Below are positions 4,057 to 46,400 of a stretch of 64,000 bases of DNA, in pieces. The number at the start of each line of letters is the position of its first letter. Position 1 is the first letter of the stretch. The translations under genes and the position numbers were made by a program. The notes below the pieces were generated by a model that worked only from the letters and a program-made list of their open reading frames with translations, was not told where the DNA came from and made no database searches. The DNA is taken from assembly GCA_038087875.1 (NCBI GenBank), contig CM075992.1, positions 12,340,001-12,404,000 on the forward strand, read 5' to 3'. The stretch comes from Malacoraja senta (taxonomy: Eukaryota).

Positions 4057-4178
4057 TGATGAAGGATCTTGACCCATTCCTTCTCTCCAGAGATGCTGCC
4101 TGTCCCGCTGAGTTACTCCAGCTTTGTGTGTCTATCTTCGATTTAAACCAGCATCTGCAGTTCCTTCCTACACATATT
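4057..4178 (+). mobile_element. Short Penelope pLTR-derived insertion in a minus-strand CR1 fragment
   Basis: Matches the 3' end of the Penelope at ~12640-12770; ATAAGATC direct repeat at 4049-4056 and 4179-4186; starts at CTGATGA. Confidence 0.7.
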
Positions 4179-4260
4179 ATAAGATCACCTCTCAACCTCC
4201 TGCACACCAAGGAATAATGTCCTAGCCTGCCCAACCTTTCCCTATAGCTCAGCCCCTCGT

Positions 4261-4856
4261 TCAGGCAAGTCTCGATGCCTCCCAGATCGCCGCGTAGAAG
4301 CCCAGGTCAGGGCCCGGCTGATGGAGCCCACGACTGGGGCCTGGGTCGGCACCACGGAAGCATGAACCTTCTGATCCTTCTGAATTTTGTAGTCTGCAGG
4401 GCAGTACTCTGCATATCGCCAACTTGGACAATTTTTACATTTTTTTTAACAAGCCAATTAATCAAGCCAATTAACCTATAAACCTGTACGTCTTTGGAGT
4501 GTGGAAGGAAACCGAAGATCTCGGAGAAACCCCACGCAGATCACGGGGAAAATGTACAAACTCCATACAATGCCCCAGCGGTCAAATCTCGCGACGATGG
4601 GGCCTCAGCGGCAGTGAAGCCTCGCGGTTGATGAGAGCGTGGATGACCACTGTGAGGGGGAGGGGAAGAACAATGGAGGACCCGGCGTGGGAGGACCACT
4701 GTGAAGGGGGGAGGGGGAGTGAGAACAAAAGGAGGAGCCTGCGTGCTTTGTAACTTTGTCAGTGCTGTGGGTGGCTGCTATTTGTATACATTGGGTACGC
4801 AGCAAATAATTTCACTGTGCCTTGTGACATGTGACAATAAAGTATTCCATTCCATT
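4261..4856 (+). mobile_element. GC-rich non-autonomous retroelement fragment with AATAAA/(ATTCC)n tail, containing a minus-strand HE1 SINE piece (~4425-4575)
   Basis: Tail ACAATAAAGTATTCCATTCCATT; paralogous to ~8740-9440; V-SINE core sequence in reverse. Confidence 0.5.
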
Positions 4857-5144
4857 ATACCAAAGACAAAAAATGCTCGAGTAACTCAGTGGGTCAAGGC
4901 AGCATCTCTGGAGTAAATGAGAGAATATTACAAGTGCAGCCTCACCAATGTACAACTGTAACATAACTTCTCAACCTTCAGTATCCTGACTGATGAAGGT
5001 AAATGTACCAAACACCTTCTTGACCACCCTATCTACCTATGATGCCACTTATAGGGAACTATATTTAGGCAACTATCCAAGATCCCTGTGCTCTACAACA
5101 CTCCCCAGGGCCCTACCAATCACTGTGGTTCTGCCCTACTTTAA

Positions 5145-5567: not shown

Positions 5568-7375
5568 CACAGATAGACACAAAAAGCTGGAGTAACACAG
5601 CAGGACAGGCAGCATCTCTGGAGAGAAGGAATGTGTGACGTTTTGGGTCAAGACACTTCAGACTGGTTAGGGATAAGGGAAACGAGAGATATAGACGGTG
5701 ATGTGGAGAGATAAAGAACAATGAATGAAAGATATGCAAAAAGTAACATTGATAAAGGAAACAGGCCATTGTTAACTGTTTGTAGGGTGAAAATGAGAAG
5801 CTAGTGCGACATGGGTGGGGGAGGGATAGAGAGAGAGGGAATGCCGGGGCTACCTGTAGTGAGATAAATCAATGTTCATACCACTGGGATGTAAGCTGCC
5901 CAAGCGAAATATGAGATGCTGTTCCTCCAATTTGCGTTTAACCTCAATCTGACAATGGACGAGACCGAGGACAGAAAGGTCTATGTAGGAATGGGAAGGA
6001 GAATTAAAGTGCCCAGCGGCACAGTGGCGCATCGGTAGAGTTGCTGCCTTTCAGCGCTTGGGTTTGACCCGGGTTCGATCGCGACTACAGGTGCTGTCTG
6101 TACGGAGTTTGTACGTTCTCCCCGTGACCTGCGTGGGTTTTCCCTGAGATCTTCGGCTTCCTCCGACACTCCAAAGACGTGCAGGTTTACAGGTTAATTG
6201 ACTTGGTATAAATGTAAATTGTCCCCAGTGTGTGTAGGATGGTGTTAATGTGCGGGGATCGCTGGTCGGTGCCGACCCGGTGGCCGAAGGCCCTGTTTCC
6301 ACGCAGTATCTCTAAACTAAACTAAACTAAGGTAAACAACCGGGAGATCAGGTAGGTTCAGCCGGGCTGAGCGAAGGTGTTACGCTAAACGATCGCCTAG
6401 TCTGCGTTTGGTCTCGCCAATGTATAACAGTCCACGTCTTGAACAATGGATATAGTAGATGAGGTTGGAGGAGGTGCAAGTGCCTAATCTGAAAGGACTG
6501 TCGGGGTCCCTGGACAGAGTCGAGGGAGGAGGTAGAGCAACAGGTGTTACATCTTTTGCAGTTGCAGGGGAAGGTACCTGGGGAGGGGGTGGTTTGGTTG
6601 GGAAGGTATGAGTTAACCAGGGAGTTGCGCAGGGAATGTCTCTGCAGAAGGCAGAAAGGGGTGGAGATGGGAAAATGTGGATAGTAGTAGGATCCCGATG
6701 GAGGTGGCAGAAAATTTGGAGGATTATGTGCTCTATGCGACGGCTGATGGGGTGGAAGGTAAGGACTAGGGGAACTAGGGGGGATTCTGTCTCTGTTGCG
6801 ACTAGGGGGAGGGAGAGCAAGGGCAGAGCTGCGGGGTATAGAGGAGACACGAGTGAGGGTCTCATCTATGACCTGTTCCCTAAAGAATGAGAAAATCTTG
6901 GATGTCCTGGAAGGGAACACCTCAGTTTGGACACAGGTGCGGTGTAGACGGAGGATTTTGGAGTAGGGGATAGAGTCTTTGCAGGAAGCAGGGTGGGAAG
7001 AAGTATAGTCAAGATAGTTGTGGGAGTCAGTAGGTTTGTAATAGACGTCAGTCAATAGTCTATTTCCGATTATGGAGACTGTGAGATCAAGAAATGGGAG
7101 GGAGGTGTCGTAGATGGTCCAAGTAAATTTAAGTGCAGCATGAAAATTGGTGGTGAAGTTGATGAAGTTCATGAGTTCTGCACGGGTGCAGTAGGTAGCA
7201 CCGATGCAGTCATCAACGTAACAGAGATAGAGTTTAGGGATAGGGCCAGTGAACGCCTGTACAGGGATCGTTCAACGTAGCCTACAAAGAGGCAGGCATA
7301 ACTGGGGCCCATGCGGGTGCCCATAACTACACCTTGGACTTGGCGTAAAGGGAAAGACTGATGAAGGATAGTCAA
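5568..7375 (-). mobile_element. Penelope-like element (RT plus GIY-YIG endonuclease), degenerate
   Basis: GVVMGTRMGPSYACLFVG, LPFLDLTV..TDVYYKPTDSHNYL, IYYIHCSRRGLLYIGETKRRL, LEEQHLIFRLGSLHPSGMN; frameshifted; pLTR end near 5570-5670. Confidence 0.88.
6016..6330 (+). mobile_element. HE1-type tRNA-derived V-SINE inserted in the Penelope
   Basis: A-box/B-box head (GGTTCGATC), V-domain TGTACGGAGTTTGTACGTTCTCCCCGTG, (CTAAA)n tail. Confidence 0.85.
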
Positions 7376-7424
7376 CATGGTAAATCGTGTTTCATATTTT
7401 GTAATAAGCTTCTTGAAAAGCTGG

Positions 7425-7665
7425 GATGGCAGTGAAGTAGCGGTAGAGCTGCTGCCTTACAGCGCCAGAGACCCGCGATCGATCCTGACTGTGCCATAAC
7501 TGTCTGTACGGAGTTTGTGCCATCTCCCTGTGACCACATAGGTTTTCTCCTGGTGCTCTTGTTTCTTCCCACACTCCAAAGTGCGAGAGTACAGGGTGAT
7601 CGCTGGTCGGCACGGACGCGATTGGCCGAAGGGCCAGTTTCCACACTGTATCTGTAAATCTAAAG
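7425..7665 (+). mobile_element. HE1-type V-SINE with internal deletion
   Basis: Same head, V-domain and tail as 6016-6330. Confidence 0.75.
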
Positions 7666-9305: not shown

Positions 9306-9839
9306 AGAACAAAAGGAGGAGCCGGCATGCTTTGTAACTTTGTACATGCTGTAGGTGGCTGCTATTTGTATACATTGGGTACGCAGCAAATAATTTCACT
9401 GTGCCTTGTCACATGTGACAATAAAGTATTCCATTTCATTATACCAAAGACTAAAAATGCTCGAGTAACTCAGTGGGTCAAGGCAGCATCTCTGGAGTAA
9501 ATGAGACAATATTACAAGTGCAGACTCACCAATGTACAACTGTAACATAACTTCTCAACCTTCAGTATCCTGACTGATGAAGGTAAATGTACCAAACACC
9601 TTCTTGACCACCCTATCTACCTATGATGCCACTTATATGGAACTATATTTAGGCAACTATCCAAGATCCCTGTGCTCTACAACACTCCCCAGGGCCCTAC
9701 CAATCACTGTGGTTCTGCCCTACATTGACTTCTCAAAGTGCAACAACTCACACCAATCTGCATTAAACTCCAAAGATAAACACAAAAAGCTGGAGGAAAA
9801 CAGCGGGACAGGCAGCATCTCTTGAGAGAAGGAATGGGT

Positions 9840-9867
9840 GACGTTTCGAGTCGAGACCCTTCTTCAG
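9840..9867 (-). ncRNA. Minimal hammerhead-ribozyme core motif in Penelope pLTR
   Basis: CTGAAGA-A-GGGTC-TC-GACTC-GAAAC-GTC: CUGANGA and GAAA boxes, stem II, palindromic ACGT stem III and GUC site. Stem I pairing is weak, so activity is not established. Confidence 0.65.
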
Positions 9868-10116
9868 ATTAATTCGGGATAAGAGAAACAAGAGATATAG
9901 ACGATGATATGCTAGGCAGAGTGGAGTGTTAGTAGAGCGAAATTGGATGCTTCTGCGGTCGAGGAAGAAATGGAGGGCTTTAAGGCCTTCCTGGTGGGGG
10001 ATGGTGTAGAGTGAATGAACGTCCATAGTAAAGATGAGGGAGTCGGGGCTCGGAAAGCGGAAATCATTAACGAGACGAAGGGCATGTGAGGTATCTTGGA
10101 CATAGGTCGGGAGAGA

Positions 10117-11010
10117 TTTGATTTGATTGATTTGATTTGATTGATTGATTTTTTACTTTATTAATCCCCTTATTCAGGGGAAATTCTGATGTCCTTGCAG
10201 CACACTAATAAAAATACAACATAGCATTAAGAAGTTTCACATTAAACATAAAAACATCCCCCCACAATGGTTCCCACTGTGGGGGAAGGCACAAAGTCCA
10301 GTCCCCATCCCCATGTCCACCCATAGTCGGGCCTATTGAGGCCTCCACAGTCGCCGCTACGGGCTCGAATGTTCCTGGCCGTTCTCGCCGGGTGATGGTA
10401 CTCCGGCGTCGGGAGAACCCTCTCAGCGGCTTGGGGTGCCAGGAACGGCCGCCTTCTTACTGGAGACCGCGGCTTCCAAGCCAACAGGCCGCTCTGGACG
10501 GAGCTGCACATACTGGCGATCACGGCGAGAGATCCCAGGCTCCGCGATGTTAAAGTCAGCGCCGCCGCCCGCAGCTGGCCGCTCCACAGACCCGCGATGT
10601 TTTTATCGGCGGTCCCCGCAGCTGGCCGCTCCACGATGTTTTTGTCGGCGGTCCCAGCATACCGGAGTTCCAGCGTGGCGACCCAGACAAGGCATCGCCC
10701 GCTCTGCGATAGCGCTCCAGCGCTGTGCCGCCGCCGAAGCCGAGGTTCTGGCCAGGTCCCCTCAGGAAACGCCGCTCCATGCCCCGCTGGTAGGCCACGA
10801 GGACGGGTCGAAGGCGCTGCTCGGAGTAAGGCAACCCCTCCGACCAGGTAGGGACTCGAAAAACAGTTTCCCCCTTCCCCCCCACCACCCCCCACACATA
10901 AAAAGATTAGGCCCCCTGACTGCACCCTCAACGTACTAAAAATAATAAAAAAGAAGGGGAAAAAACGGACAGCTGCAGGACAGGCAGCCGTTCAGGACAG
11001 CGCCTCCTCT
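10117..11010 (-). mobile_element. GC-rich non-autonomous SINE-like element with (TCAA/TCAAA)n tail, nested in the Penelope
   Basis: Minus strand ends AATAAAGTAAAAAATCAATCAATCAAATC; its head (..GGCTGCCTGTCCTGCAGCTGTCCG) resembles those at ~14380, 43001 and 56843. Confidence 0.55.
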
Positions 11011-13224
11011 GGCATAGCAAGGGGATAGGATGGAGTCGAGGTGAAAATAATTTCAGTGGGACAGGTGCAGGCTGAAACAATGGGTCTGCCAGAGCAGTCG
11101 TGTTCCCACTCCCTCATTTTTACTATAGACATTCAGTCATTCTACTCCTCCATCCCCCACCAGGAAGGCCTTAAAGCCCTCTGTTTCTTCCTCGAACACA
11201 GAACCATCCAATTTCCCTCTACTAACACTCTATTCCACCTAGCAGAGCTGGTCCTCACCCTTAACAACTTCTCCTTCGACTCCTCCCACTTCTATCAAGT
11301 CCAAGGAGTAACTAGGACCACCCCCATGGGCCCCAGTTATGCCTGCCTCTTTGTAGGGTACATTGAACAATCCCTATTCCAGGCTTACACGGGCCTTATC
11401 CCCGAACTCTGTCTCCGTTATATTGATGACTGAATCAGTGTTACCTCCTGCACCCATGCCGAACTCATGGACTTCATTAACTTCACCACCAATTTCCATC
11501 CTGCACTCAAATTCACTTGGACCATCTCCGACACCTCCCTCCGCTTTCTTGATCTCACCATCTCCATCACAGGAAGTAGACTATCAACTGATGTCTATTA
11601 CAAAGCCACTGACTCCCACAACTATCTCGACTACACTTCTTCCCAGCCTATTTCCTGCAAAGACTCTATCCCCTACTCCCAATTCCTCCATCTATGCATC
11701 TGTGCCCAAGATGAGGTACTCCATACTAGGATATCTGAGGTCCTCATTCTTTAGGGAACGGGGGTTCCCCATCCATCATAGATGAGACATCCACTCGTGT
11801 CTCCTTGGTACCCCGCATCTCCGCCCTTGCTCCCCATCCCCCTAGTCACAACAGAGACAGATTCCCCCTAGTCTTTACCTTTCACCCCATCAACCGTCGC
11901 AGACAACATATAATCCTTCTAAATTGTTGCCACCTCCAAGGGGATCCTACACCCGTCACATCTTCCCATCTCCACCCCTTTCCACCTTCTGCAGAGACCA
12001 TTCTCTCTGCAACTCCCTGGTTAACTCATCACTTCTCACCCAAACCACCCCCTCCCCATGTACCTTCCCCTGCAACCGCAGAAGATGCAACACCTGTCCC
12101 TATACCTCCTCCCTTGACTGAGTCCAGGGACCCCGACAGTCCTTTCAGGTTAGGCAGAGGTTTACTTGCATCTCCTCCAACCTCATCTACTGTATCCATT
12201 GTTCAAGATGTGGACTCTTATACATCTACGAGACCAAATGTAGACTGGGCGATCATTTGACTGAACCTACCTGAACTTCCGGTTGCTAAACATTTTAATT
12301 CCCCTTCCCATTCCCACACAGACCTTTCTGTCCGAGGTCTCCACCGTTGCCAGAGTGAGGCTAAATGCAACTTGGAGAAACAGCATCTCATATTTCGCTT
12401 GGGCAACCTAGTGGTAGGAATATTGATTTCTCTAGCTTCAAGTAACCCCGGCAATCCTATTCTCTCTACCCCTCCCGCACCAAAGTCGCACCAGCTTCTC
12501 ATTTTCACCCAACAAACAGCTAACAATGGCATGTTTCCTTTATCATTGTTACTTTTTTGCATATCTTTCGTTCATCCTTCTTTATCTCTCTACATCATAC
12601 TGTAGTCTATAACTCTTGTTTCCCTTATACCTAACTAGTCTGAAAAAGGGTCTCAACCCAAAACGTCACCCATTCCTTCTCTCCCGAGATGCTGCCTGTC
12701 CCGCAGTGTTACTCCAGCTTTTTGTGTCTATCTTTGGTTTAAACCAGCATACAGTATGCAGTTCCTTCAGATGCATTAAACTCCATAAGCATTTCCTCAG
12801 CTCACTTGCTCAGCTGATCAAGACGGTTATAATTATCGATAACCATCTTCACTCTCTATGATATCACCCTCTTTAGTGTCTTTTGTAAGCTGACTGATCA
12901 TGCATTCTGCATTCTCAACCGAATCTTTGATATCAACCACAAATAGCACCAATCGCTGTGGCACAGAACTAGTCACAGGCTTCGAGTCCAAAAAACACCC
13001 ATACCTTCATCAACCTCAATTCTGTATGCAGTTGGACTCTCCCTAAATTCCAGGCAACTTTCAAGATTTTCAAACTTTCAAATGTTCTTATTAAATCTTT
13101 TCCCCTTCACCTTAAACCCATGTCCTCTGGTCCTCGATTCACCTGCTCTTGGCAGGAGGTTCTGTGCATTTACGCGATCTATTCCTCTCATGATTTTATG
13201 CACCATTTTATACACCACGTTTAC

Positions 13225-14232: not shown

Positions 14233-14379
14233 TTGAAGAAAGAGATGAAAAACGTTCCTCCCTCACATAATACACAACTAAAAATAGACTATTACGTACA
14301 TCTAACGCTAACGATAAGACAAAGAAGGAAGAAAGACAGACTGCAGGTGAGCCGCTGCCACAGACACAGCGCTGCCCCG

Positions 14380-15660
14380 AGTATTTTGACCAGGGAGTTG
14401 CGGAGGGTATGATTGCTGTGGAAAGCGGAAAAGGGAAGAGATGGTAAGATGTGGGTAGTGGTAGGGTCCCGTTGGAGGTGGTGAAAATGTCGGAGAATCT
14501 CGGACTATCTGGTATGGAACACCTCATCTTCGGTGCAGATACGCAAAGCAAGGTGTGAAGAAGTGTAGTCCAGATAACTGTGGAGTCAATAGGTTTAGAA
14601 TGCATGTCAATCAATAGTTTATCTCCTGTGATAGAGACGGTGAGATGAAGAAACGGTAGTGAGATGTCGGAGATGGTCCAAGTGCACTTGAGTGCAGGAT
14701 GGAAATTAGTACTAAAGCTAACGACATCAGTGAGTTCTGCATGGGTGCAGGAGGCAGCACCGATGAAGTCTTCAATGTAGCAGAGATAGTGTTCAGGGAT
14801 AGGGCCAGTGTAAGCCTGAAACAGGGATTGTTCAACATACTCTACAAAGCGGCAGGCATAGCTGGGGCCCAAGCAGGTGCTCCGAGCTACGCCTTTGATT
14901 TGGAGGAAGTGAAAGTAATTGAAGGAGAAGTTAAGATTAAGGACCATCTCTGCTAAGCGGAGGAGAATGTTGGCTGGTTCTGCGGTCGAGGAAGAAACGG
15001 GCTTTAAGACCATCCTGGTGGGGGATGGAGGTGTAGAGTGACTGACATGCATATTAAAGATGAGGGAGAGGGGGCCTGGAAAACGGGTCATTGAAGTGAC
15101 GAAGGGCAAGTGAGGTGGCTTGGACATAGGTTGGGAGGGGGATAGGATGCAGTCGAGGTATGTGGAAATACCATGGGACAGGAGCAAGCAGAAACAATGG
15201 GTCGGCCATGGCTGGTCTGTTTATGGATTTTGGGGAGAAGGTAAAACTGGGCCGTGCGGGGCTGGGGAAGGCTTTGGAGGCTTTGGAGAGCAGACCGCTG
15301 GAAGTGATCAAATCAGAAATGGTCTGTGAGATTATGGCCTGGTGCTCATCTGTGGGATCATAGTCCAAGGAAGAGTAGGAGGAGGTGTCTGAGAGTTTGC
15401 ACCTGGCCTCAGCGCCAGACTACCACGGCACCTCCCTTGTCGCGGGGTTTGATGATAATGTTGGGGTTGCTGCAGAGTGAGTGGAGGGCTATACATTCAG
15501 AGGGGCAGTGGTTAGAGAAGGTAACGGGAGTGGAAAAGTTGAAATAAAAAGGTCAAAGGAGAGTAGAAGGCTGTTGGAGAGTCTAAGAGGAGGGGGACCG
15601 TTGGAGATGGGAGAAGGGGTCATCACTGGGTGGTAAGGTCTTACCATAGAAAAAGGCACA
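14380..15660 (-). mobile_element. Penelope-like RT fragment
   Basis: FLQIKGVARSTCLGPSYAC..CYIEDFIG..LPFLHLTVSI. Confidence 0.8.
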
Positions 15661-16361
15661 GAGTTGGAGACGATGGAAGAAAAGCTCTACATCATGGCAG
15701 ACCCGGAACTCATTGAAGTAGGGGCGGAGCAGAACAAAAGTGAGGCCTCCGTTGAAGACAGAACGTTCCATATCCAATGGGAAGACCAATGTACTAAACG
15801 CCTACTAACCATCCAATCTACCTGTGACACCACTTTCGAGGAACTATGCACCTGCACTCTTAGATCCCTCTGCTTTACAACTCCCCAGAGCCCTGCCATT
15901 CACTGTGAAAGTCTTGCCGTGGTTATGACTTCCCAACACCTCTTACTCGTCTACATTAAGCTCTGTGAACCATTGCTCAGCCCACTTGCCCAGCCGATCA
16001 AGTTCTTGCGGTAATGTTCGATTAACAACTTTACTATCAACGATACCACCTATTTTAGTGTCATCTACAAACTTACTACTCATGCTTTGTGTGGTCTTAA
16101 CCAAAACATTACTATAAACCATGAACAGCAATGGGCCCCAACACAAATCCCTGAGGCACACAACTAATCACCGGCCTCCAGTTGGAAAAACAACCCACCA
16201 CCGCCCTCTGGTTCCTTCCACGAAGACAATTCTCCATCCAGCTGATAGACACAGTACGCTGGAGTAACTCTGCAGGTCAGGCAGCATCTCTGGAGAAAAT
16301 AGGTGGTGTTTCGAGTCAAGACACATCTTCAGACGTCTTCAGACCCTGTACAAATGTAAAC

Positions 16362-26720: not shown

Positions 26721-26849
26721 TGTTTAAGAAGGAACTGCAGATGCTGGAAAATCGAAGGTAGACAAAAGTGCTGGAGAAACTCAGCGGGTGCAGCAGCATC
26801 CGTGGAGCGAAGGAAATAGGCAATGTTTCGGGCCGAAACCCTTCTTCAG
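26721..26849 (-). mobile_element. 129-bp Penelope pLTR-derived insertion beginning at a hammerhead core
   Basis: Minus strand CTGAAGAAGGGTTTCGGCCCGAAAC...CCTTCTTAAACA; flanks GGGGAGAAG and GGAGAGAAG (degenerate TSD). Confidence 0.75.
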
Positions 26850-30033: not shown

Positions 30034-30237
30034 GTTAAAGAAGGAACTGCAGATGCTGGAAAATCGAAGGTACACAAAAATGCTGGAGAAACTCAGCGGG
30101 TGCAGCAGCATCTTATGGAGCGAAGGAAATAGGTAACGTTTCGGGCCGACGAGGGTTTCGGCCCGAAACGTTACCTATTTCCTTCGCTCCATAAGATGCT
30201 GCTGCACCCGCTGAGTTTCTCCAGCATTTTTGTGTAC
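30034..30237. mobile_element. Palindromic Penelope pLTR-derived insertion with 15-bp TSD
   Basis: TSD CATCGGAAACATGTT at 30019-30033 and 30238-30252; perfect 81-bp inverted arms (30069-30149 and 30158-30238); absent at the equivalent site ~44091-44105. Confidence 0.88.
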
Positions 30238-30559: not shown

Positions 30560-30980
30560 TACAAATATAGGGTGCAAAAGTACTTTAAAAAAAATTGAGG
30601 TCAGGTAAGGGGGGATGCTTGTTGAAGAGTTGGTATGTCCCATTTACGTAATGCTCATAAAAATATTTGTTTCTCTCTTTTTCCTCTTCCTCTTTCTCTT
30701 TCTTTTCTAGGGTCTATTTCTTAACTCTTTTTCTTTTGTTTTTAATTTTGCTCTTATAGGGTCTTCGTCCTTTTTTGTTGTCACATTTTCTACACTTTCA
30801 CGTTTTCCTTCACTTTCTTCTTTCTTTCAATCTTTTCTTTTTCTAGTGTAAAAAATAAATGGAGTACATTAATTGTAAGAAGACATAAGTGACGAGTACT
30901 AATGTATGTGGTTGTAATGTAATGTACTTCAAATAAATAAAAATAAAAAAATAATACAATTTAAAAAATAAATTAAAAAA
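30560..30980 (+). mobile_element. L1 3' UTR/poly-A stub with 15-bp TSD
   Basis: AATTTAGAAGGATGA at 30545-30559 and 30981-30995; T-rich UTR, AATAAA, A-rich tail. Also in copy 2 (~44413-44833). Confidence 0.75.
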
Positions 30981-33900
30981 AATTTAGAAGGATGAGAGGG
31001 TATCTTATTGAAACATATAAAATTATTAAGGGACTGGAGACGCTAGAGGCAGGAAACATATTCCTGATGTTAGGGGAGTCCAGAACCAGGGGGCCACAGT
31101 TTAAGAATAAGGGGTAGGCCATTGAGAACGGAGATGAGGAAAAGCTTTTTCACCCAGAGAGTTGTCAGTCTGTAGAATTTTCTGCCTCAGAAGGCAGCGG
31201 AGGCCAATTCTCTGGATGCTTTCAAGAGAGAGTTCGATAGAGCTCTTCAAGATAGCGGAGTCAAGAGATATGGGGAGAAGTGTTTAAGAAGGAACTGCAG
31301 ATGCAGCAGCATCCATGGAGCGAAGGAAATAGGCAACGTTTCGGGCTGAAACCCTTCTTCAGGGGGAGATAACCTTAATAACCTATATGTTTCATTAAGA
31401 TCCCCTCTCATCCTTAAAATTACTGTGTATACGAGCCCAGACGTTCCATTCTTTCAACATATGACAGTCCCGCCATACCGGGAATTAACCTCATGAACCT
31501 ACGCTGCACTCCCTCAATAGCAAGAAAGTCCTTCCTCAAATTTCGAGCACCAAAACTGCTCACTAGGGCCCTGTACAACTGTAGAAGAACATCTTTGCTC
31601 CTATACTCAACTCATCTTGTTATGAAGGCCAACATGTCATTTGCTTTCTTCACTGCCTGCTGTACCTGCATGCTTACTTTCAGTGACTGATGAACAAGTG
31701 TGAATATGCATGGGTTTGGGTACTTGGGAAAATGGCAGATGTCTGTGAAACCTGCTTCACTGAGGCTGACATCACTTGCAGGGAGCTGGAGACCTATGTG
31801 ACATAGATGGCTCCAGGGAGTCTGAAGCCTGGGTAGGGGCTGCAGAAAGTATCTGCCCTTGTGACCTACATGTTGCCACAATGTCTGGGATTCTGCAGGT
31901 GCAGCAAAGCCCTGATGCTAAAGGCAAGCTTGTGGTTGGTTGGGGAGATGTTATGTCTCAACTATGTATTGGTACCTTCCCGCCGGTACTTGTGATTGGT
32001 CCAGAAGAGTGGCATCACCAAAGATGTTTCTTTATCTAATGGTAATGTTTCTTTACTTAATGGGAATGTTTTTCCCTGTGCTATGTGTTGAAACTATGTT
32101 ATGCATTGTTATAGGATTGGGCCAAAGAGTTGTCGTTCTATGTATTTTGCAGCCGGTATCAGTAATTGGTTTGTAGGTGCTGAGGACCAGTATTTAGCGG
32201 GTAGGAGGGTTCGAGGCCTCGGGGGGGGGGGGGTTTCAGGCCCCACCTGTGTGTGTTCGAGTACCATACAGTACTGGGTATTATCAGTGCTAAGGTAAAA
32301 TTGGCTGGAATACTTTAAAAATTAGCACTGAATTTTAGGACGCGTCTGTGATAATTCTAGGACTGTGATCCTAATTTTTTTTTCATTTTTGAAGCATCAG
32401 AAAATGGGTACAGATTATGTTACCATATCCAAGCTCATTTTTTCCAAATGTACATATCAAAACAGAACATTTGAGTATTATACAAACAATATGAATGGGC
32501 ATGTTTATAAAAACATTAAAAAATATATTTTAATAAACAAACAAATGAGGGGGGGAAAAAGTAAATAATAAAAATAACTAAATACATAATTAAAGTGCAG
32601 GTGACTACAGTACATAGGGAGCAGTTCAGTGCAATAATTCTTTGTGAAGACTCTTGTTTCTACAGCTTCTAACTCTCCTGTCTTCTATCTCTTACATAAT
32701 TTCATTAAAATGAATGGTTTAGAGTGTAGATAGGTTTGTGTTATGTGTCAATATTCAGCTGTGCAAGAAATGACATAAATGGTTGCCAGATTTTATTAAA
32801 TTGGTTGACTCTATCCTTTAGAACATATCTTATTCTTTCTAAATGTAATGTACTGGTCAAGTCATGAAGCCACATTCTGGAATTGGGAGCTGTTGTTGTT
32901 TTCCATGACATGAGCAGTGGTTTCTTTGCCGTAATGAGACAGTAGGAGTGGAATTGTCATTGAGCAGTTGTGAGTTGTCTTGATGTTTCAGATACCCCCA
33001 AGATGATTAATACGGGTTCTGGGTTTAATGGAATGTTAAGAATGTCTGAGATATTCTTAACTATATCAGACCAGAAAGAGGTGAGTTTAGGGCACGATAC
33101 AAAGTTATGAAAAAGAGTAGCATCTGAGGAGTGACATTTATCACAAGTAGGAGAAACATTTGGATATATACTGTGTATTTTTGCCTTGGAGTAGTGAAGT
33201 CTATGTATAATTTTGAACTATATGAGGCAGTGTCTAGCATTGGTTGAGCACCTATGTATAAGTTTGAGGCTTTCCTCCCATATTTCATCTGGTATTTGCA
33301 CATTTATGTATTTTCCCCGATTGATCTTATACTTGCTAGAGGATGGAGAAGATATTAATAGGACATCATACATATAGGAGATAAATTTGTCATCATATGG
33401 TGATGTTTTAAGGGAGTCATCTATTTGAGACTGCCTCTCAACTTCAAATCCTGACAGATGCTTTCGTATATAATCCCTGATTTGCAAGTATCTGAAGAAG
33501 TTACTATTTGGGAGATCAAATTTCTTTCGTAGCTGTGTGTAAAGGTGGCAAACGTACCATCGATATATAGGTCTCGGACACTGTGGATTCCTAATTCACT
33601 CCATGTAGAGGAAGTCTTATCTAAAATAGATGGTTTGAATGTGGGGTTGTTTGCTACGGACAAAGCGAGAGATATACTGTAGGTTTAAATCAAGGCAAGG
33701 CAAGGCAAGTTTATTTGTATAGCACCTTTCAACCACAAGGTAATTCAAAGTGCTTTACATAAAACATTTAAAGCATTTGAAAGAAACACATATAAAATGA
33801 CATTTAGATATAAAATGATTATTAGATTATTCTGATAATAATTACAAAATTAAAAGCAATCAAATAAAATATTTAAAATAGAATAAAACCAGGAATAGAA

Positions 33901-34437
33901 GTTACAGTGCAGTATAGATAATTAATAAATTGTATTGTTTACTGAAAGGCAGCGGCAAACAGAAAAGTCTTCAGTCTAGATTTCAAAGAGCTGAGAGTTG
34001 CAGCAGACCTGCAGTTTTCTGGGAGTTTGTTCCAGATATGTGGTGCATAAAAATTAAATGCTGCCTCTCCATGTTTAGTTCTGACTCTGGGGACACAGAG
34101 CAGACCTGTCCCAGACGATCTGAGAGGTCTGGGTGGTTCATAGCTAAGCAGAAGATCAGAAATGTATTTTGGCCCTAAACCATTCAGTGCTTTGTAAACC
34201 AACAGTAGTATTTTGAAATCAATTCTTTGACAGACAGGAAGCCAGTGTAAAGACCTCAGAACTGGAGTAATGTGATCTACTTTTTTGGTCTGAGTGAGGA
34301 CTCGAGCAGCAGCGTTCTGAATTAACTGCAGCTGTCTGATCGACTTTTTAGGGAGACCTGTAAAGACACTGTTACAGTAGTCGAGCCTGCTGAAGATAAA
34401 TGCATGGACAAGTTTTTCCAAATGCTGCGGAGACATA

Positions 34438-36054: not shown

Positions 36055-37103
36055 TAAGTCCCTTAATCCTTGATATATGCCTCAGGTGATAGTAGGTTGA
36101 CTTTGTGACTGTTTTTATGTGGCTGTTGAAGTTCAGGTCTGAGTCCATGACTACTCCTAAGTTTCTGGCTTGGTTTGTTGTTTTTAGCATTACCATTTGA
36201 AGCTGGGTGCTAACTTTTAATTGTTCTTCCTTGGCTCCAAAAACAATTATTTCAGTTTTTTCTTTGTTTAATTGGAGAAAATTCTGGTTCATCCAATTGT
36301 TGATTTGCTCAATGCATCTACTCAGTGCTTGTATTGGACTATAGTCTCCTGGTGATATTGTTATGTAGATTTGTGTGTCGTCTGCGTAACTATGGTAACA
36401 TATTTTGGTTTTTCATGATCTGAGCCAGTGGAAGCATGTAGATGTTAAACAGAAGAGGCCCCAGAATGGAGCCCTGGGGAACTCCACATGTAATTTTTGC
36501 ACGCTCAGATGTGTAATTACCTATAGACACAAAGTAGTCCCTGTCCTTCAAGTAGGATTCAAACCATGGTACATTTTAACATTTTAAGTTCAAAATGGGT
36601 TCTGATTTGCTTCCATATATGTATCAAATTGTGTATAACAGGATTAAATCCATAATATGATTTATCAATTGAAGTAGGAGCTAATAGGATGGGACCTATT
36701 GAGTATGGGTGACAATCTTCTTGTTCTATTTTTAGCCAATTCAGAGGGATGTTTGAGGTGTCAAGCCAGAAAGCAAAGGACTTGATGGCAGATGCCCAGT
36801 AAAAGAATCTGAAATTTGGAAGAGCAAGCCCGCCCTTTTGATTCGCAGAGCTGATTTTTGTTTATCCTATGAGTTTTGTAATTCCACAAGAAAGGTATTA
36901 TTATCGAATTTAATCTCTTTAAAAATGTTTTTGTAAGAAAAATAGGAATGTTCTGAATTTGATATCGTAGATGGGGTAAGAAGATCATTTTAATGTTATT
37001 CACTCTTCCGAGTAAGGAAATTGGAAGAGTTTTCCAGAGTTGGATTTTGCTTTTTAGGTTTTCTAATAAGGGAAGGAAATTGGCCTGTAGCAGGGAAGAG
37101 TAA

Positions 37104-37718
37104 CAGCTCTGTCTCATGGTGTTGCGGTCATCGGCGGTGAAGCGCGGCGTCGCCGGTAGAGGGGACCGCACGGCAACGGTGAGAGCGCCGAGCCTATGCC
37201 ACGGGAGCGCCGCACGGGTGCTGCGCGGGGGCCGAGTGATTTAAGTACGGCTGGTCCCACAGGCTTGCGGTAAGTTAAAAAAAAAGGGCGGGCCGACTGC
37301 GATGACGTCATTTTGGATCTGCGGGGCTGTGGCGGCGGCCGTGCTGATCGCGGCGCTGTGGCGGCGGCCGTGCCGCACACGTGTCTCACTGGCGGAGGCT
37401 GTGGCGGCGGCTGTGGCGGCGGTCGTGCCTCACTGGCGGAGGCTGTGGCGGTGCAAGTTCGACGCACGGCGCTCGTGCCACACTGGCGGTGGCTGTGGCG
37501 GCGGTCGTGCCGCACTCGTGCCTCACTGGCAGAGGCTGTGCGGTAGGAAACGTTTTTTAAACAGTGTTGGTTTTATTTTAGCACCGTGCGGTGTTGGGAA
37601 CAACGCCGCACGGCCCCGGAATTGTGCGTTTGACCGAGTGCGCGGTCTATGGCGGCCTAGGAGCGGTAGATTCTTCCTGTTTCGCCGCCAATGACCGCAG
37701 ACTCGCGAGACAGGCCTT
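37104..37718. mobile_element. Harbinger-like MITE (615 bp, GC-rich internal repeats)
   Basis: TAA on both flanks; imperfect TIR (CTGTCTC..TGCGGTCATYGGCGGYGAA); removal restores L1 ..AVTKCYSSLL. Copy 2 at 50956-51558 is 12 bp shorter. Confidence 0.7.
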
Positions 37719-39606
37719 TAACACTTTGTAACCGCAATTCCTAGATAGGTAAATGTATCTGTTGTTACTCTGAAAGGAAAATTCTCCAATGTATCTGAGG
37801 GGATGGTATGAACTGGGAACAGTATACTTTTATTCCAGTTAATACTGTAGCCTGAAAATGTACCAAACAGATTAATTTTTTCCAGTATCGCTGGAATAGT
37901 GGTTTGAGATTCCTTTGTGTACAGGAGGATATAATCCGCGTACAAAGATATTTTATTTGTAGTCTCTTTCGTGTCGTAACCATGAATACGTGGATCTAAT
38001 TGAATACTCTGAGCAAAAGGTTCTATAGCAAGGGCAAATATTAATGCTGATAGGGGGCAACCCTGTCTTGTTCCCCTGAACAAATTAAAGGGAGATGAGA
38101 GCGTTTGGTTTGTGAGGGTTCGTGCTGTCGGATTTTTATACAGAAGCTTAATCCATTCCAAAAAATTGTATCCAAAGTTAAATCTCTTGAGGAGCTCGAA
38201 TAAGTATGGCCATTCAATCTGGTCAAATGCTTTTTCCGCGTCAAACGTTAGTCTAGCCAAGTCGTTGTTTCCTTCTCTTTTTGTGTACATGATATTAAAC
38301 AGACTTCTCAAGTTAACGGTGGATTGTCTATTAGGTATGAACACCGTTTGATCTTTGTGTATTAATTTACTTATTAATGGGCTTAATCTATTGGCTATGA
38401 TTTTAGCAAATAGCTTGCCATCTATATTTAGCAGTGAGATCGGATGGTATGAACTTACTTCTTGGGTATCTTTTCCTTTCTTATGAATCACTCTAATTGT
38501 TGCTTCAGTTAGTGTTGGTGGTAGGGCTCCGTCTGATTGTGCTTGTCTATACATTCTATATATATACAGTGTCAGAGTATCATTACATTTCCTGTATAAT
38601 TCACTTGGAAGTCCATCTGGACCTGGTGCTTTAACAGTTTTAAGAGATGAGATGGCTTCTTGAATCTCTATAACACGGAGATCAAAATTAAGACCATTGC
38701 ATTCTTCTTCACTTAATTTAGGGAGATTGCATCTATTAAGAAAGTCATTCATGACAGGGGAGTTTGCGGTGCATCTGGGCGTATATAGGCTGGAATAAAA
38801 CTCAAACAATCTATCATTTATTTGTTTGGATTTTGTTAGCGCTGTTCCATTGTTACTCTTCATTTTATGTATTGTTCGGTCAGTCTCCATTTTTCTTAGC
38901 TGTCGTGCCAATAATTTGTGCAGTCTGTCTCCGAATTCGAAGTATTTTCGTTTGGTGCATAAAAACGCTTTGCTTATTTTTGCAGAGAGTAATTGATTAT
39001 ATGATATCTCAAATTTGCAATTTTCCTGTGTAAATCAGAGGAGGGATCGAGTGCGTTATCCCTGTCCAATTGTTGGATCTGTTTTTCTAATTCTTCTATT
39101 TTTATTTTACCCCGTTCCCAAAGCCCCCACTCACTGAAACCCCGTTCCAGAGCTCCATGCCATTTGCCGGGACCTCCTTTCCCAGGGCTCCCTCCCTCCC
39201 AGTTGCTGGGACCACAGATCTCATGCTCCATATCATATTCCAGGCCGCAGTTTCCTGTTCGCTCCCACTCTTTGTGTAACAATACGGATTTCCGGTGCTA
39301 TCTGTGTGGAGTTTGCATGTTCTCTCCATGACTGTGTGGGTTTCCCCGGGTGCTCCAGTTTCTCCCACTTCACAGAAACTTGCTGGGACGTTAATCAGCA
39401 GCTGTAAAATGCCGCATTGTGGGTTAATGGCAGTTGATGTGACGGTGTCAATAGACAATAGACAATAGGTGCAGGAGTAGGCCATTCGACCCTTCAAGCT
39501 AGCAGCGCCATTCACTGTGATCATGGCTGATCATCCACAATCAGTACCCCATTCCTGCCTCCTCCCCCTATCCCTTGACTCCGCTATCTTCCACAGCTCT
39601 ATCTAA

Positions 39607-39879
39607 AAGCCCTGTCCCACAGTGCGAGTTGATTCCAAGAGTTCTCCCGAGTTTGCCCTGATATAAACTTGGAGATTTACGGTATTGGCCACTCATCGGT
39701 ACTCGGGGCTCCCGTGGACATTTTTCAACGAGTACCTGCTGTTAGCGGTACAAGCCGATAAGTGACGTCCCCGAGCTCCGAGGTGCCCGCTACGTTCATT
39801 CTCCGTGCTTACCATGAGTTTGATTTTTTTTTAAACTCGGGAGAGCACTTGAATGAACTCGCACCGTGGGACAGGGCTT
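39607..39879. mobile_element. Harbinger-like MITE (273 bp)
   Basis: TIR AAGCCCTGTCCCACRGTGCGAGTT (1 mismatch), TAA/TTA flanks; empty site in the paralog near 29850. Copy 2 at 53448-53720. Confidence 0.78.
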
Positions 39880-41089
39880 TTACTCTCTCTTGAAAGCATC
39901 CAGATAATTGGCCTCCATTGCCTTCTGAGGCAGAGAATTCCACAGATTCACAACTCTCTGGGTGAAAAAGTTTTTTCTCATCTCCATTCTAAACGGCCTA
40001 CCCCTTATTCTTAAAATGTGGCCCCTGGTTCTAGACTCCCCCAACATCGGGAACATGTTTCCTGCCCCTAGCGTGTCCAATCCCTTAATAATCTAAAATG
40101 TTTAATTAAGATAACCTCTCATCCTTCACAATTACAGTATGTATAAGCCCAGTCGCTCCATTCTTTCAACATATGACAGTTCCGCCATCCCGGGAATTAA
40201 CCTCATGAACCTACGCTGCACTCCCTCAATAGCAAGAATGTCCTTCCTCAAATTTCGAGCAGCAAAACTGCTCACTAGGGCCCTGTACAACTGTAGAAGA
40301 ACATCTTTGCTCCTATACTCAACTCCTCTTGTTATTAAGGCCAACATGCCATTCACTTTCTTCACTGCCTGCTGTACATGCATTCTTACTTTCAGTGACT
40401 AATGAACAAGTGTGAATATGCAAGTTTGAGTACTTGTGAAAATGGCAGATGTCTGTGAAACTGTGGAACTGTCAAACTGAGGGTGGCATCACTTGCAGGG
40501 AGCTGGAGACCCATGTCACATAGATGGCTCCAGGGAGTCTGAAGCCTGGGAAGGGGCTGCAGAAAGTATCTGCCCTTGTGACCTACATGGTGCCACAATG
40601 TCTGGGATTCTGCAGGTGCAGCAAAGCCTTGATGCTAAAGGCAAGCTTGTGGTTGGTTGGGGAGATGTTATGTCTCAACTATGTATTGGTACCTTAACTT
40701 GTGATTGGTCCAGAAGAGTGGCATCACCAAAGATGTTTCTTTATCTAATGGTAATGTTTCTTTCCTTAATGGAAATGTTTCTCCCTAAGTGCTATATGTT
40801 GAAACTATGTTATGTACTGTTATATGATTGGGCCAAAGAGTTGTCATTCTATGTATTTTGCAGCCAGTATCAGTAATTGGTTTGTAGGTGCTGAGGACCA
40901 GTATTTAGCGGGTAGGAGGATTCCAGGCCTAGGGGGGTTTGAGGCCCCGTCTGTGCGGGTTCGAGTACCAAACAGTACTGGGTATTATCAGTGCTAATGT
41001 AAAATTGGCTGGAATACTTTAAAAATTAGCACTGAATTGTTAGGACGCATCTGTGATAATTCTAGGACTGTGATCCTAATTTTTTTATG

Positions 41090-43000
41090 TAACTTTTGCG
41101 AATTCGAGGTATTCATATTCAGTGCTTTTGGTTATTCTTATACTTTAGTTGTTTGTTTCTGATCGTGTAATATAGAGACTTGCTTAAAATTGTGTAATTT
41201 ACTCTGCTACCGTAATTGTAATTTAAATTGTATGCTTATACTTTATATTCTGGTTTGCTTTTGCATTATAATTGTTAGTTGCATAATTTATTGATTAAGC
41301 GGTAATTGGCTCCACGGAAGGGGAATGTGTTTGCCTTCTGTCAAATTGAGCATTATCCTCGGAATGAGAACAATGTCATCGTTGAAGGCATCGTTGAATT
41401 TTTGTGTCGCTTTTCCACAATCATCATCATTCCATTGCATTGCTTTGGCGGTTCCAAGTTTCTCATTAACATGATCGGAGATCCTTTTTTCAACTCCAAT
41501 TTGTGTGGTGGTAATCCAGAGATCTCGAGTGAATCAAGGAATTCTGTTGGGAAATGAGTAGCATTAGTTCCCTCAGTGCCAGGGAAGTGTTTGATACATG
41601 TAGAATTGATGATTCTCATCGTATCGTTGTGCGGAACCAAGATACAATTGTCGGAGAATATTTCTGCGGGATTGTCAAACGTGGGATAGATGAAATCAAT
41701 ACAATCCTCCAGTGTTGTAGCTGATAGAACCATGTCTTGTGGCATTTCAATTTCTTCATCATTATTCTTTAAAATGTCGTCTTCTCCAACTTTCAACAAA
41801 AATTGAGAATATTCGTCTTCTCCCTCTCTCAATCGCATATTTGACTCCAATTGAAACTTGGTGAAAAGTCCCCACAAGTAGGATTTCTTGATACAGGAAT
41901 TTTCAATATCAGCATGATTTCCCCTTTTCACTACAAGAAAGAGATGTCCAAAATCGCCAAAACAAATGGTAAGAATGCCACCAACAGGTTTAGTGTTGGT
42001 GTATACATCTCGAAGAGATCTGTCCACCGCTTCAAAGCTCTCCCTGCTAATCATCAGGCACTCATCCCATGAGTTTCACTTGCCTCTTGAAACGTGATGT
42101 GTTAGAGTTCTTGTCAATTTTGCAGAATGTGTTTTTGGTCACTTGGATGGGTATCTTGAATCGAGAATGTGCAGTTCTTCCACCAGGCATTAATGTAGCT
42201 GCTATCCCAGAGGATGCGACAGCTATAGCAACATCACCTTGACCTCTAACTTTGGAGAGGATCAAATTGGTGATAAAGGTCTTCCCTGTTCCTCCTGGTG
42301 AATCAGTGAAAAACATTGAAGGAAGATTCCTTTTCAACAGTCGCACACCTGGTCATACACTGCTCTCTGCTCAGCATTCACTCGGAGACACGGTTTACAC
42401 TTGTCCCAGAACGTTGGCTTCAAAAATAACTGGATGATCTTCCACTCTGGCCAACCTTCCTTCTTTGCCATCTCCTATTGTTCCATGTGTAAAATCGGGA
42501 ACATCAGCGGAGTAGAGTGTTCATGCAATTGGCTCTCGAGAACACAATACCATGACTTCAGTTCTCGCCATATCTTCATTCCTCACTCGCTGAGTAGCAT
42601 TGACTATGATAACGACTAGTTGTTCTTGTGGTAGATGTACCTTGAGTCGAAAGACAGCGGGTTGTCTCTCATGAGTCGGAAATCTAAGGGTTGATGCTTC
42701 TGATGGACCAATGTATTTACTGCATTTTCCATCCTTCCAACATGAAGAGGTGTGGTTGCAGAACGGTCTATGAATCATCTGCTTGAGTACCAATACATGC
42801 AGCTCAGGATCTACTTGTGGGTCTGGTATTTCAGCTTGCACAAATCTGTCAAAATGTTTTGGTCCTGGCTTACTCGCTTTGTCAAGCCACAGCAGAGTGC
42901 AAATGAGGCAGAGCTATCTTCTGATATTCCATAGTGGAGACAAACGCTATACAGTTGCCAAAGAGGCCATGTGGTCCAGTGAGGTACTTAATGAATAGAA
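41090..43000 (-). pseudogene. Helitron Rep/PIF1-helicase remnants (copy 1, cut by the gap)
   Basis: AEIPDP..MIH, PGGTGKT, ASSGIAATL..GRTAHSRFKIP, GDF, GLPPHKLELKKGSPIMLMRNL. Confidence 0.9.
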
Positions 43001-43248
43001 TAGTGGCGGCACTGCCCTAGCAGCTGCGGCTCGCCTGCAGTCCGTCTGTCTTTTTCTTTTTGTTGTTGTTTTCTTTTGTCCTGTTTTAGTTAATTTTAGT
43101 TTGTTAGGTTGTGTATGTGTGGGGGGGGGGTTGGGAGAAACATGTTTTTGGTTTCTTCCTTCGGGGGGATGCGACCTTTTCTTGTCGTATCCCCCATCTC
43201 CGTCTCCGTCTGTGCTGAGGCCTAATGGCGGAGCTGGCGGCCTCCAAC

Positions 43249-43448
43249 NNNNNNNNNNNNNNNNNNNNNNNNNNNNNNNNNNNNNNNNNNNNNNNNNNNN
43301 NNNNNNNNNNNNNNNNNNNNNNNNNNNNNNNNNNNNNNNNNNNNNNNNNNNNNNNNNNNNNNNNNNNNNNNNNNNNNNNNNNNNNNNNNNNNNNNNNNNN
43401 NNNNNNNNNNNNNNNNNNNNNNNNNNNNNNNNNNNNNNNNNNNNNNNN
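43249..43448. other. Assembly gap (200 N)
   Basis: Run of N between the two duplicate copies. Confidence 1.
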
Positions 43449-46400
43449 AGACCCCCATTCCAGAGCTCCATGTCATTTGCCGGGACCTCCTTTCCCAGAG
43501 CTCCTTCGCTCCCAGTTGTTGGAACCCCGGATCTCATGTTCCATTTCATATTTCGGGCCATAAACTCCTGCTTGCTCCCACTTTCCCGGCGCCGGTGTAA
43601 CAATACTGATTTCCGGTGCTATCTGTGTGGAGTTTGCATGTTCTCCCCGTGACTGTGTGGGTTTCCCCGGGTGTTCCAGTTTCTCCCACATTGCTGAAAC
43701 TTGCTGGGACGTTAATCAGCTGCTGTAAAATGCCCCAGTGTGGGTTAATTGGCAGTTGATGGGATTGTGTCAATAGTCAATAGACAATTGGTGCAGGAAT
43801 AGTCCATTCGGCCCTTCGAGCCAGTATTGCCATTCACTGTGATCATGGCTGATCATCCACAATCAGTACCACATTCCTGCCTCTTCCCCATATCCCTTGA
43901 CTCTGCTATCTTCCATAGCTCTATCTAACTCTCTCTTGAAAGCATCCAGAGAATTGGCCTCCACTGTCTTCTGAGGCAGAGAATTCCACAGATTCACAAC
44001 TCTCTAGGTGAAAATGTTTTTCCTCATCTCCGTTCTAAATAGCCTAACCCTTATTCTTAAACTGTGGCCCCTGGTTCTGGACTCCCCCAACATCGGAAAC
44101 ATGTTTCCTGCCCTAGCATGTCCAATCCCTTAATAACCTATATGTTTCATTAAGATGCCCTCTCATCCTTCAAAATTACAGTGTATACAAGCCCAGCCGT
44201 TCCATTCTTTCAACATATGACAGTCCCGCCATCCCGGGAATTAACCTCATGAACCTACACTGCACTCCCTCAATAGCAAGAATGTCCTTCCTCAAATTCT
44301 AGCTATTGAGGAACTGCAGCGTATGTTCACGAGGTTAATTCCCGGGATGGCGGGACTGTCATATTTTGAAGGAATGGACTGGGCTTGTATACACTTTAAT
44401 TTAGAAGGATGATACAAATATAGGGTGCAAAAGTACTTAAAAAAAAATTGAGGTCAGGTAAGGGGGGATGCTTGTTGAAGAGTTGGTATGTCCCATTTAC
44501 GTAATGCTCATAAAAATATTTGTTTCTCTCTTTTTCCTCTTCCTCTTTCTCTTTCTTTTCTAGGGTCTATTTCTTAACTCTTTTTCTTTTGTTTTTAATT
44601 TTGCTCTTATAGGGTCTTCGTCCTTTTTTGTTGTCACATTTTCTACACTTTCACGTTTTCCTTCACTTTCTTCTTTCTTTCAATCTTTTCTTTTTCTAGT
44701 GTAAAAAATAAATGGAGTACATTAATTGTAAGAAGACATAAGTGACGAGTACTAATGTATGTGGTTGTAATGTAATGTACTTCAAATAAATAAAAATAAA
44801 AAAATAATACAATTTAAAAAATAAATTAAAAAAAATTTAGAAGGATGAGAGGGTATCTTATTGAAACATATAAAATTATTAAGGGACTGGAGACGCTAGA
44901 GGCAGGAAACATATTCCCGATGTTAGGGGAGTCCAGAACCAGGGGCCACAGTTTAAGAATAAGGGGTAGGCCATTGAGAACGGAGATGAGGAAAAGCTTT
45001 TTCACCCAGAGAGTTGTCAGTCTGTAGAATTTTCTGCCTCAGAAGGCAGCGGAGGCCAATTCTCTGGATGCTTTCAAGAGAGAGTTCGATAGAGCTCTTC
45101 AAGATAGCGGAGTCAAGAGATATGGGGAGAAGTGTTTAAGAAGGAACTGCAGATGCAGCAGCATCCATGGAGCGAAGGAAATAGGCAACGTTTCGGGCTG
45201 AAACCCTTCTTCAGGGGGAGATAACCTTAATAACCTATATGTTTCATTAAGATCCCCTCTCATCCTTAAAATTACTGTGTATACGAGCCCAGACGTTCCA
45301 TTCTTTCAACATATGACAGTCCCGCCATACCGGGAATTAACCTCATGAACCTACGCTGCACTCCCTCAATAGCAAGAAAGTCCTTCCTCAAATTTCGAGC
45401 ACCAAAACTGCTCACTAGGGCCCTGTACAACTGTAGAAGAACATCTTTGCTCCTATACTCAACTCATCTTGTTATGAAGGCCAACATGTCATTTGCTTTC
45501 TTCACTGCCTGCTGTACCTGCATGCTTACTTTCAGTGACTGATGAACAAGTGTGAATATGCATGGGTTTGGGTACTTGGGAAAATGGCAGATGTCTGTGA
45601 AACCTGCTTCACTGAGGCTGACATCACTTGCAGGGAGCTGGAGACCTATGTGACATAGATGGCTCCAGGGAGTCTGAAGCCTGGGTAGGGGCTGCAGAAA
45701 GTATCTGCCCTTGTGACCTACATGTTGCCACAATGTCTGGGATTCTGCAGGTGCAGCAAAGCCCTGATGCTAAAGGCAAGCTTGTGGTTGGTTGGGGAGA
45801 TGTTATGTCTCAACTATGTATTGGTACCTTCCCGCCGGTACTTGTGATTGGTCCAGAAGAGTGGCATCACCAAAGATGTTTCTTTATCTAATGGTAATGT
45901 TTCTTTACTTAATGGGAATGTTTTTCCCTGTGCTATGTGTTGAAACTATGTTATGCATTGTTATAGGATTGGGCCAAAGAGTTGTCGTTCTATGTATTTT
46001 GCAGCCGGTATCAGTAATTGGTTTGTAGGTGCTGAGGACCAGTATTTAGCGGGTAGGAGGGTTCGAGGCCTCAGGGGGGGGGGGGTTTCAGGCCCCACCT
46101 GTGCGTGTTCGAGTACCATACAGTACTGGGTATTATCAGTGCTAAGGTAAAATTGGCTGGAATACTTTAAAAATTAGCACTGAATTTTAGGACGCGTCTG
46201 TGATAATTCTAGGACTGTGATCCTAATTTTTTTTTCATTTTTGAAGCATCAGAAAATGGGTACAGATTATGTTACCATATCCAAGCTCATTTTTTCCAAA
46301 TGTACATATCAAAACAGAACATTTGAGTATTATACAAACAATATGAACGGGCATGTTTATAAAAACATTAAAAAATATATTTTAATAAACAAACAAATGA

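Follow-up and report, generated by a model that had tools for sequence, protein, structure and literature searches.

Short Penelope-derived inserts in Malacoraja senta share a non-random 5' edge at the hammerhead motif

The question raised by this locus is why short inserts derived from Penelope-like elements (PLEs) repeatedly begin at one place, the CUGANGA box of the hammerhead ribozyme. The window analysed here is a whole stretch of 64,000 nucleotides of Malacoraja senta DNA (assembly GCA_038087875.1, contig CM075992.1, forward-strand positions 12,340,001 to 12,404,000); it is repeat-rich, and the closest named proteins to its reverse transcriptase (RT) fragment come from rays and sharks. 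A preliminary description of these inserts had proposed either a discrete ribozyme-headed non-autonomous family mobilised by Penelope or structure-dependent RT termination. We find that the 5' edge is a real, non-random feature of ordinary dead PLE fragments, and not a new family. In the reading we favour, to which we give a probability of roughly one half, RT primes at internal tail sites and runs off the 5' end of an RNA that ends near the front edge of the hammerhead, probably at the transcription start. Positions are numbered with the C of CUGANGA as +1, the predicted cut following +28, and published work is cited from the accessible parts of each source.

The 5' endpoints were mapped in public contigs aligned on the long copy F of the window (12490-12789, cleavage triplet GTC at 12665-12667). 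Four of the 22 listed public runs were aligned (X1, X2, X6 and X16), and the loose-end figures are those of 24 listed rows out of 1345; X16 is recorded as probably DNA and so has no bearing on expression or splicing. Endpoints spread uniformly along the pseudo-long terminal repeat (pLTR) had been named as the result that would speak against a preferred start. Instead, loose 5' ends peaked at the front edge of the hammerhead: at 12637 (-3) in 1075, 1311, 1337 and 190 of 13354, 15945, 16423 and 2175 partly aligned contigs, at 12638 (-2) in 515, 616 and 642 contigs (X1, X2, X6), and at 12639 (-1) in 434 (X2) and 55 (X16), with a further peak at 12646. These listed peaks stand 8- to 26-fold above the uniform share. 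Positions 12637 and 12646 adjoin mismatches private to F and gather clipped ends, so that their pile-up is partly inflated; by a rough estimate, 13-24% of the ends at 12637 may belong to another subfamily with a different upstream sequence, and a pure clip artefact at 12661 reaches 7- to 8-fold. No F-private mismatch adjoins 12638 or 12639, where the flanks look random (agreement 0.31-0.32, and 0.38 for X16 at 12639).

A distant replicate shows the same edge. Eighteen of 120 listed relatives were aligned, 89 loci were fetched, and a hammerhead was found in 28. One genome bin, G001, holds a young family with copies mostly 85-100% identical to the query; it is the best endonuclease match to F among the matches listed (46%), and its tail aligns with that of insert H of the window. 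The copy set, which is incomplete, comprises 40 scored candidates out of 109 and yields 56 arms; eight reach the query start or the locus edge, leaving 48 truncated arms. Half of these (24/48) end at -11..+12, with p about 2e-22 against a uniform spread, a value in which paired arms are not independent. In finer bins, 12/48 lie at -11..-7 with a hard edge at -8, 3/48 at -40..-12 and 1/48 at +24..+32; five arms form a second 5' peak at -3. The 3' ends fall into two groups, 22/56 at +90-99 and 28/56 at +140-151. At -8 a purine follows a pyrimidine, and the distance to this point from TATATAAA, which starts at -39, is 31 nt. Position -8 is also the outer edge of the predicted helix I, whose inner part has its edge at -3, and the fold of this segment is significant (z -3.3).

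Nine short inserts of this family are head-to-head pairs, and all nine join one tailed arm to one untailed arm, as does insert I of the window. Most have TSD-like repeats (target-site duplication, TSD) of 6-14 bp. In eight of the nine, an end at -8/-7 is a possible reading for one arm or more, and no arm need pass -8: apparent ends at -10 are the centre of a TCGA palindrome. One pair junction contains repeated re-copies, each ending at -8. The edge of a second G001 family is less sharp, with 5/14 truncated arms ending at -6..+18 (20 rows, minus one chance match to a bacterial contig and five full-span arms). Nearly all copies of six small G001 families (3-5 hammerhead-bearing copies each, chosen for the core) extend upstream; three others yielded either an insufficient number of copies or nothing beyond (TA)n matches.

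Two observations concern G001 itself. It is a prokaryote genome bin with much animal repeat DNA and many hammerhead-bearing families; the animal repeat DNA is contamination of the collection. In 21 of 23 copies of its young family the core reads CCGACGA instead of CUGANGA (for example L004:1991-1997), and an actively spreading family may therefore carry a weakened ribozyme.

Within the window, a BLAST search with the named inserts returned 12 pieces (Table 1). The five short inserts of the preliminary description prove to be three events, A, G and H: J derives from H, with which it has its 3' flank in common, and K duplicates J. A start at the box holds for these three; copies C, E and F, which begin upstream, and the downstream-starting B and its duplicate D had been missed, as had insert I. 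Overall, five of nine arms (eight events) start in -3..+14, three (C, E, F) far upstream and one (B/D) downstream, for a post hoc binomial p of 2e-8 to 2e-3 depending on the null span. The report of TSD-like flanks on two inserts stands: A has a 12-bp TSD with one mismatch (TATCATAAGATC/TATTATAAGATC, 4045-4056 and 4175-4186) and H a 9-bp TSD with one mismatch, each inside a repeat that we take to be CR1-like. Calling the inserts ribozyme-headed is an overstatement, most of the heads being incomplete ribozymes: A has lost both GAAA and its GUC cleavage triplet to an internal deletion, the triplet is gone from G too, and H, starting at +1, is without the 5' strand of helix I. In front of the start of G, the first bases of the element are repeated as a 12-nt stutter (16335-16346).

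In insert I, the tailed (-) arm starts at +14 and the untailed (+) arm at +8, between 15-bp TSDs at 30019-30033 and 30238-30252. It is also the difference between two copies of about 13.7 kb (29377-43248 and 43449-57091), 99.4-99.7% identical, that flank 200 N (43249-43448). This pair represents either tandem-assembled haplotypes or a very recent duplication, and insert I is accordingly polymorphic or very young. A long hairpin at 30093-30218 gives sub-threshold microRNA matches in Rfam because of the inverted repeat, and is likely to be a source of false microRNA calls.

Table 1. Penelope-derived pieces of the window; starts are relative to the C of CUGANGA (+1)
Feature	Positions	Strand	5' start	Remarks
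Mini copy A	4057..4174	+	-1..+2	C3 = 4056; TC common to insert and TSD; tailed 3' end
Copy B	4864..4918	-	about +33..+45 (uncertain)	Start downstream of hammerhead; untailed; duplicated as D
Long copy C	5571..7456	-		Counter-example; pLTR and damaged hammerhead (core 5661); end without tail
Copy D	9448..9502	-		Duplicate of B, in 498-bp repeat of 96% identity
Copy E	9773..10137	-		Intact minimal hammerhead, core 9867; counter-example
Long copy F	11065..12768	+		pLTR, core 12640, GTC triplet, tail; reference for contig mapping; counter-example
Mini copy G	16244..16346	-	-2 (16334)	Untailed; no TSD; cleavage triplet mutated
Mini copy H	26721..26849	-	+1	Tailed; younger subfamily
Insert I	30034..30237	.		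Head-to-head pair joined in stem II
J	31281..31362	-		Derivative of H, internal deletion, other 5' flank; not independent
Empty site of insert I	44091..44105	.		In near-identical duplicate
K	45133..45214	-		J within 13-kb duplicate, 99.7% identical; not independent

What the inserts preserve is the 3' part of Neptune-type Penelope elements, 90-130 bp long: the hammerhead, with or without a tail. The Penelope origin already proposed is borne out by remnants of an open reading frame (ORF), by the pLTR hammerhead and by the two classes of 3' end. The ORF remnants of C (interrupted RT and GIY-YIG, 5814-7456) and F (broken; RT, Cys-rich linker, GIY-YIG) align with relatives bearing RVT_1 and GIY-YIG, and RT precedes the endonuclease (EN) in one ORF upstream of the pLTR; the RT fragment by itself scores 25.7, under the Pfam cut-off of 29.6. 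A minimal type I hammerhead lies in the pLTR on the ORF strand, with intact core, stem II and GAAAC-GUC in E and decayed in F and C; in the Rfam scan no hammerhead model matched. The two 3' end classes appear both in the window copies and as contig peaks at 12734 and at 12750 plus tail. Arising from an optional tail, they are, like the inverted 5' partner, a trait of EN-containing (EN+) PLEs. A Cys Zn-finger-like linker between RT and EN defines the Neptune clade (PMC8557442), and the C-x4-C-x2-C motif at that place in the translations of F and C is what points to a putative assignment to it.

Sequence patterns for the window family gave no matches in viral, genome or metagenome contigs, and no relatives turned up in viral contigs. 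One frame is open through the short inserts H and I, but no relative's protein matched the minis. In E, the 45 nt of pLTR upstream of the hammerhead abut a fragment of RT, and this copy stands head-to-head with F; these two remnants, E (-) and F (+), may be one insertion. About 22 nt beyond the untailed end are common to C and E, and another Penelope RT remnant lies at 14336-15915 (-) with no pLTR nearby.

The run-off reading can be set out as follows. A pLTR promoter would start the RNA at about -3 in the window family or -8 in the G001 family, just 5' of helix I, and the hammerhead and tail signal would thus be present at both the RNA's 5' end and its 3' end. RT priming on the 5' copy of the signal, at +95 or +130-150, would give run-off cDNAs (complementary DNAs) of 95-150 nt, which would often lose a few terminal bases on joining. 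When both nicked strands prime, one per start site, the two run-off cDNAs would join head to head, as in insert I. We infer run-off, most likely from a transcription start at the edge, because of the TATA-to-edge spacing, the known pLTR promoters and the in vitro products whose ends are set by the template. With regard to spacing, the TATA-like word of F (TATAACTC at 12608) lies at -32 with the edge at -3..-1, and TATATAAA of the G001 family at -39 with the edge at -8, both being shifted in the same way. A PLE promoter lies inside the pLTR (PMC2377424), and a putative TATA and initiator occur in the pLTR of a rotifer element (PMC3846280). For an anole PLE in vitro, product length is set by the template 5' end, hammerhead mutations leave that size unchanged, and, in the accessible account, no reads end at the cut site (PMC11167929). 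In the same system two internal RT start sites define the tail, and both strands are nicked and extended; the two window 3' ends match these start sites.

Several points weigh against this interpretation. In the G001 family the -8 edge and the second peak at -3 coincide with edges of predicted helix I, and a start site alone leaves -3 unaccounted for. The TATA-like word of the window family is poor (TATATCTC or TATAACTC), and a TATA at -45..-26 occurs in only 4 of 21 related hammerhead families, two of these being (TA)n runs. For the Drosophila virilis element, transcription starts upstream at a distance of about 120 nt from the hammerhead, and an intron separates the two (PMC2377424, PMC4209133). 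In the second G001 family, 4/14 truncated arms end at -37..-26, past the predicted start at -8. The lineage test described below was made in G001 over 83 columns with no strongly supported branch, and for the window genome consists only of the comparison of A with C, E and F.

Stutters of the element's first 10-20 bases were seen at 5' junctions in the window (16335-16346) and at L009:604-640, L214:7485-7506 and L224:3088-3103, which suggests repeated re-priming at the template end.

A more general proposal is tentative, and we hold it at somewhat less than an even chance: in a single Neptune lineage, whose hosts would include cartilaginous fishes and a distant invertebrate, transcripts may begin at the first base of the hammerhead, which would place the RT-loading signal at the RNA's 5' terminus, and 95-150-nt run-off cDNAs may form routinely, one per start site on two nicked strands. 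If this is true, mini inserts would preserve in fossil form both the position of the transcription start and an obligatory two-primer step, and the one-ended tail and the palindromic head-to-head junctions of PLEs would be explained without an antisense template.

The alternative that survives best, though it is unlikely, is that transcription starts upstream and a 5'-to-3' exonuclease trims the RNA until it stops at a folded, protein-bound hammerhead, leaving ends at the helix I edges. The G001 peaks at -8 and -3 fit the predicted helix I, the one its outer edge and the other its inner edge; the window edge at -3/-2 fits its 2-bp helix I, the anole PLE hammerhead cleaves only with protein (PMC11167929), and the arms of the second G001 family that end at -26..-37 show that longer templates exist. 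Trimming would, however, make a coincidence of the fact that -8 is both TATA+31 and a pyrimidine-purine start. Moreover, a monomeric minimal hammerhead is weakly folded, and folding of the window copies is not significant (z -0.1 to -1.0).

Structure-dependent termination on a longer template, in which RT halts at the motif or the cDNA folds on itself through the palindromic hammerhead, appears improbable. Self-priming has been proposed for palindromic junctions (PMC3846280); the junctions of insert I and the G001 pairs do use palindromes (TCGA at -10..-7, stem II, TTCGAA at +33), and G001 ends are scattered over the motif from -8 to +19. A stall of RT, the second option of the preliminary description, is weakened because RT would be expected to stop where it enters the fold, on its 3' side: helix I presents its 3' strand first, yet 44/48 truncated G001 arms passed +28. 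The pairs also left other short upstream palindromes unused, and the anole product in vitro follows the template 5' end through the hammerhead region (PMC11167929).

The other option, a discrete ribozyme-headed non-autonomous family that has master copies of its own and is mobilised by Penelope in the manner of a SINE (short interspersed nuclear element) or a retrozyme, is rather improbable as well. In its favour, contig depth over the downstream part exceeds that over the upstream pLTR of F by 7-14 times, a ratio that is not a copy number; the H/I and G subfamilies have no long copy within the window; and an internal promoter, as in D. virilis, could allow mini transcription. Head-to-tail joints from 12734 back to 12637/12638 do occur, but in few contigs (14 in X1, 5 in X2 and 12 in X6), at about 1% of the listed loose ends at the edge. 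The lineage test argues the other way. A tree of 26 short and 21 long G001 arms (83 columns, excluding arms that start after +12 or end before +90) required 13 changes between short and long labels against 14.0 when shuffled, with no starred branch, and three sets of identical rows span both classes. The short and long copies thus intermix, and the minis of G001 are not a lineage. In the window, A carries the same subfamily sequence as C, E and F, which bear the ORF. Three subfamilies of the window and a distant family have this boundary in common; starts range from -8 to +19; and window minis lack helix I or the catalytic core. The TATA-like word lies outside the minis. The organisation of non-LTR (non-long terminal repeat) retrozymes is likewise not found here: the window has no tandem unit, and the ribozymes of A, G and H are incomplete. 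We conclude that the minis are likely by-products of the full element, not a separate family.

Very improbable is a boundary formed at a 3' splice site (pyrimidine tract, CTAAC, CAG at -4..-2), with spliced or lariat RNA setting the cDNA end. Acceptor-like sequence is present at 12600-12639 and in C, and the D. virilis intron ending at helix I offers a precedent (PMC4209133). Against this, A and H adjoin their TSDs directly with no upstream exon, the G001 family piles up alike with no YAG before its core, and just 3 nt separate the AG from the putative branch word.

Hammerhead self-cleavage, which the preliminary description already held insufficient, is scarcely credible and largely refuted as the main cause: B/D start slightly downstream of the cut and one G001 arm ends at +28, yet the peak lies 30-36 nt upstream of the cut, that arm's bin (+24..+32) holds no other of the 48, and no cut-site peak is found among the listed contig rows.

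The edge bears on several open questions of PLE biology, namely integration, head-to-head junctions with a one-sided tail and the role of the hammerhead. A fixed 5' edge, with one arm tailed and the other not, makes predictions that bear directly on 5'-end mapping and on the in vitro assay already available. For annotators, these are abundant pieces that can be mistaken for SINEs, retrozymes, miniature inverted-repeat transposable elements (MITEs) or microRNA hairpins. Already known are the solo minimal hammerheads that truncated PLEs leave, along with tails and inverted partners; new here are the distant replicate, the lineage test, the rule of one tailed and one untailed arm in mini pairs, and the start-site model. 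No published account of a 5' edge at helix I was found in the literature covered, which mostly excluded subscription papers and supplementary figures. The accessible part of a review (PMC6765202) has nothing on endpoints. The text of three supplementary files of PMC11167929 likewise has nothing on the 5' edge; figure S2 and the preprint supplements, outside this scope, may show 5' coverage.

Among known systems, the elements most resemble EN+ PLEs of the Neptune clade (PMC8557442), in having RT, Cys-rich linker, C-terminal GIY-YIG and a minimal type I hammerhead in the pLTR, and in their 5' truncation, inverted 5' partner and optional 30-40-nt tail at one end only. They differ in that truncation is there described as variable, and neither a helix I 5' edge nor inserts of two 95-150-nt head-to-head arms are described in the accessible text. 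PAc, a Poseidon element of Anolis (PMC11167929), likewise has two RT starts one tail apart, about 110-170 nt behind the hammerhead, nicks and extends both strands, and does not require cleavage; it belongs to another clade, and there the RT starts (3' ends) were mapped, and not genomic 5' ends or the transcription start. As reported for the anole element, the long ORF opens within or just before the hammerhead in the full-length relatives L031:323, L022:338 and L019:10, the ATG of L031 lying inside CTGATGA.

The solo minimal hammerheads of truncated PLEs (PMC4209133) are comparable in numbering thousands per genome, with some opposite-strand pairs 100-700 bp apart. The accessible account gives no endpoint analysis, and many minis found here, being without part of the ribozyme, would go uncounted. 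Non-LTR retrozymes (10.64898/2026.07.22.740005) are similarly pLTR-derived and non-coding, with type I hammerheads, and are reported in a cartilaginous fish. They consist of tandem units, each with a full hammerhead, in contrast to the solo or head-to-head inserts with TSDs and broken ribozymes described here. Finally, the D. virilis Penelope (PMC2377424, PMC4209133) also has its promoter and start inside the pLTR, upstream of the hammerhead; its start is TATA-less and lies about 120 nt upstream, and its intron has its end at helix I, whereas the start proposed here would abut helix I itself.

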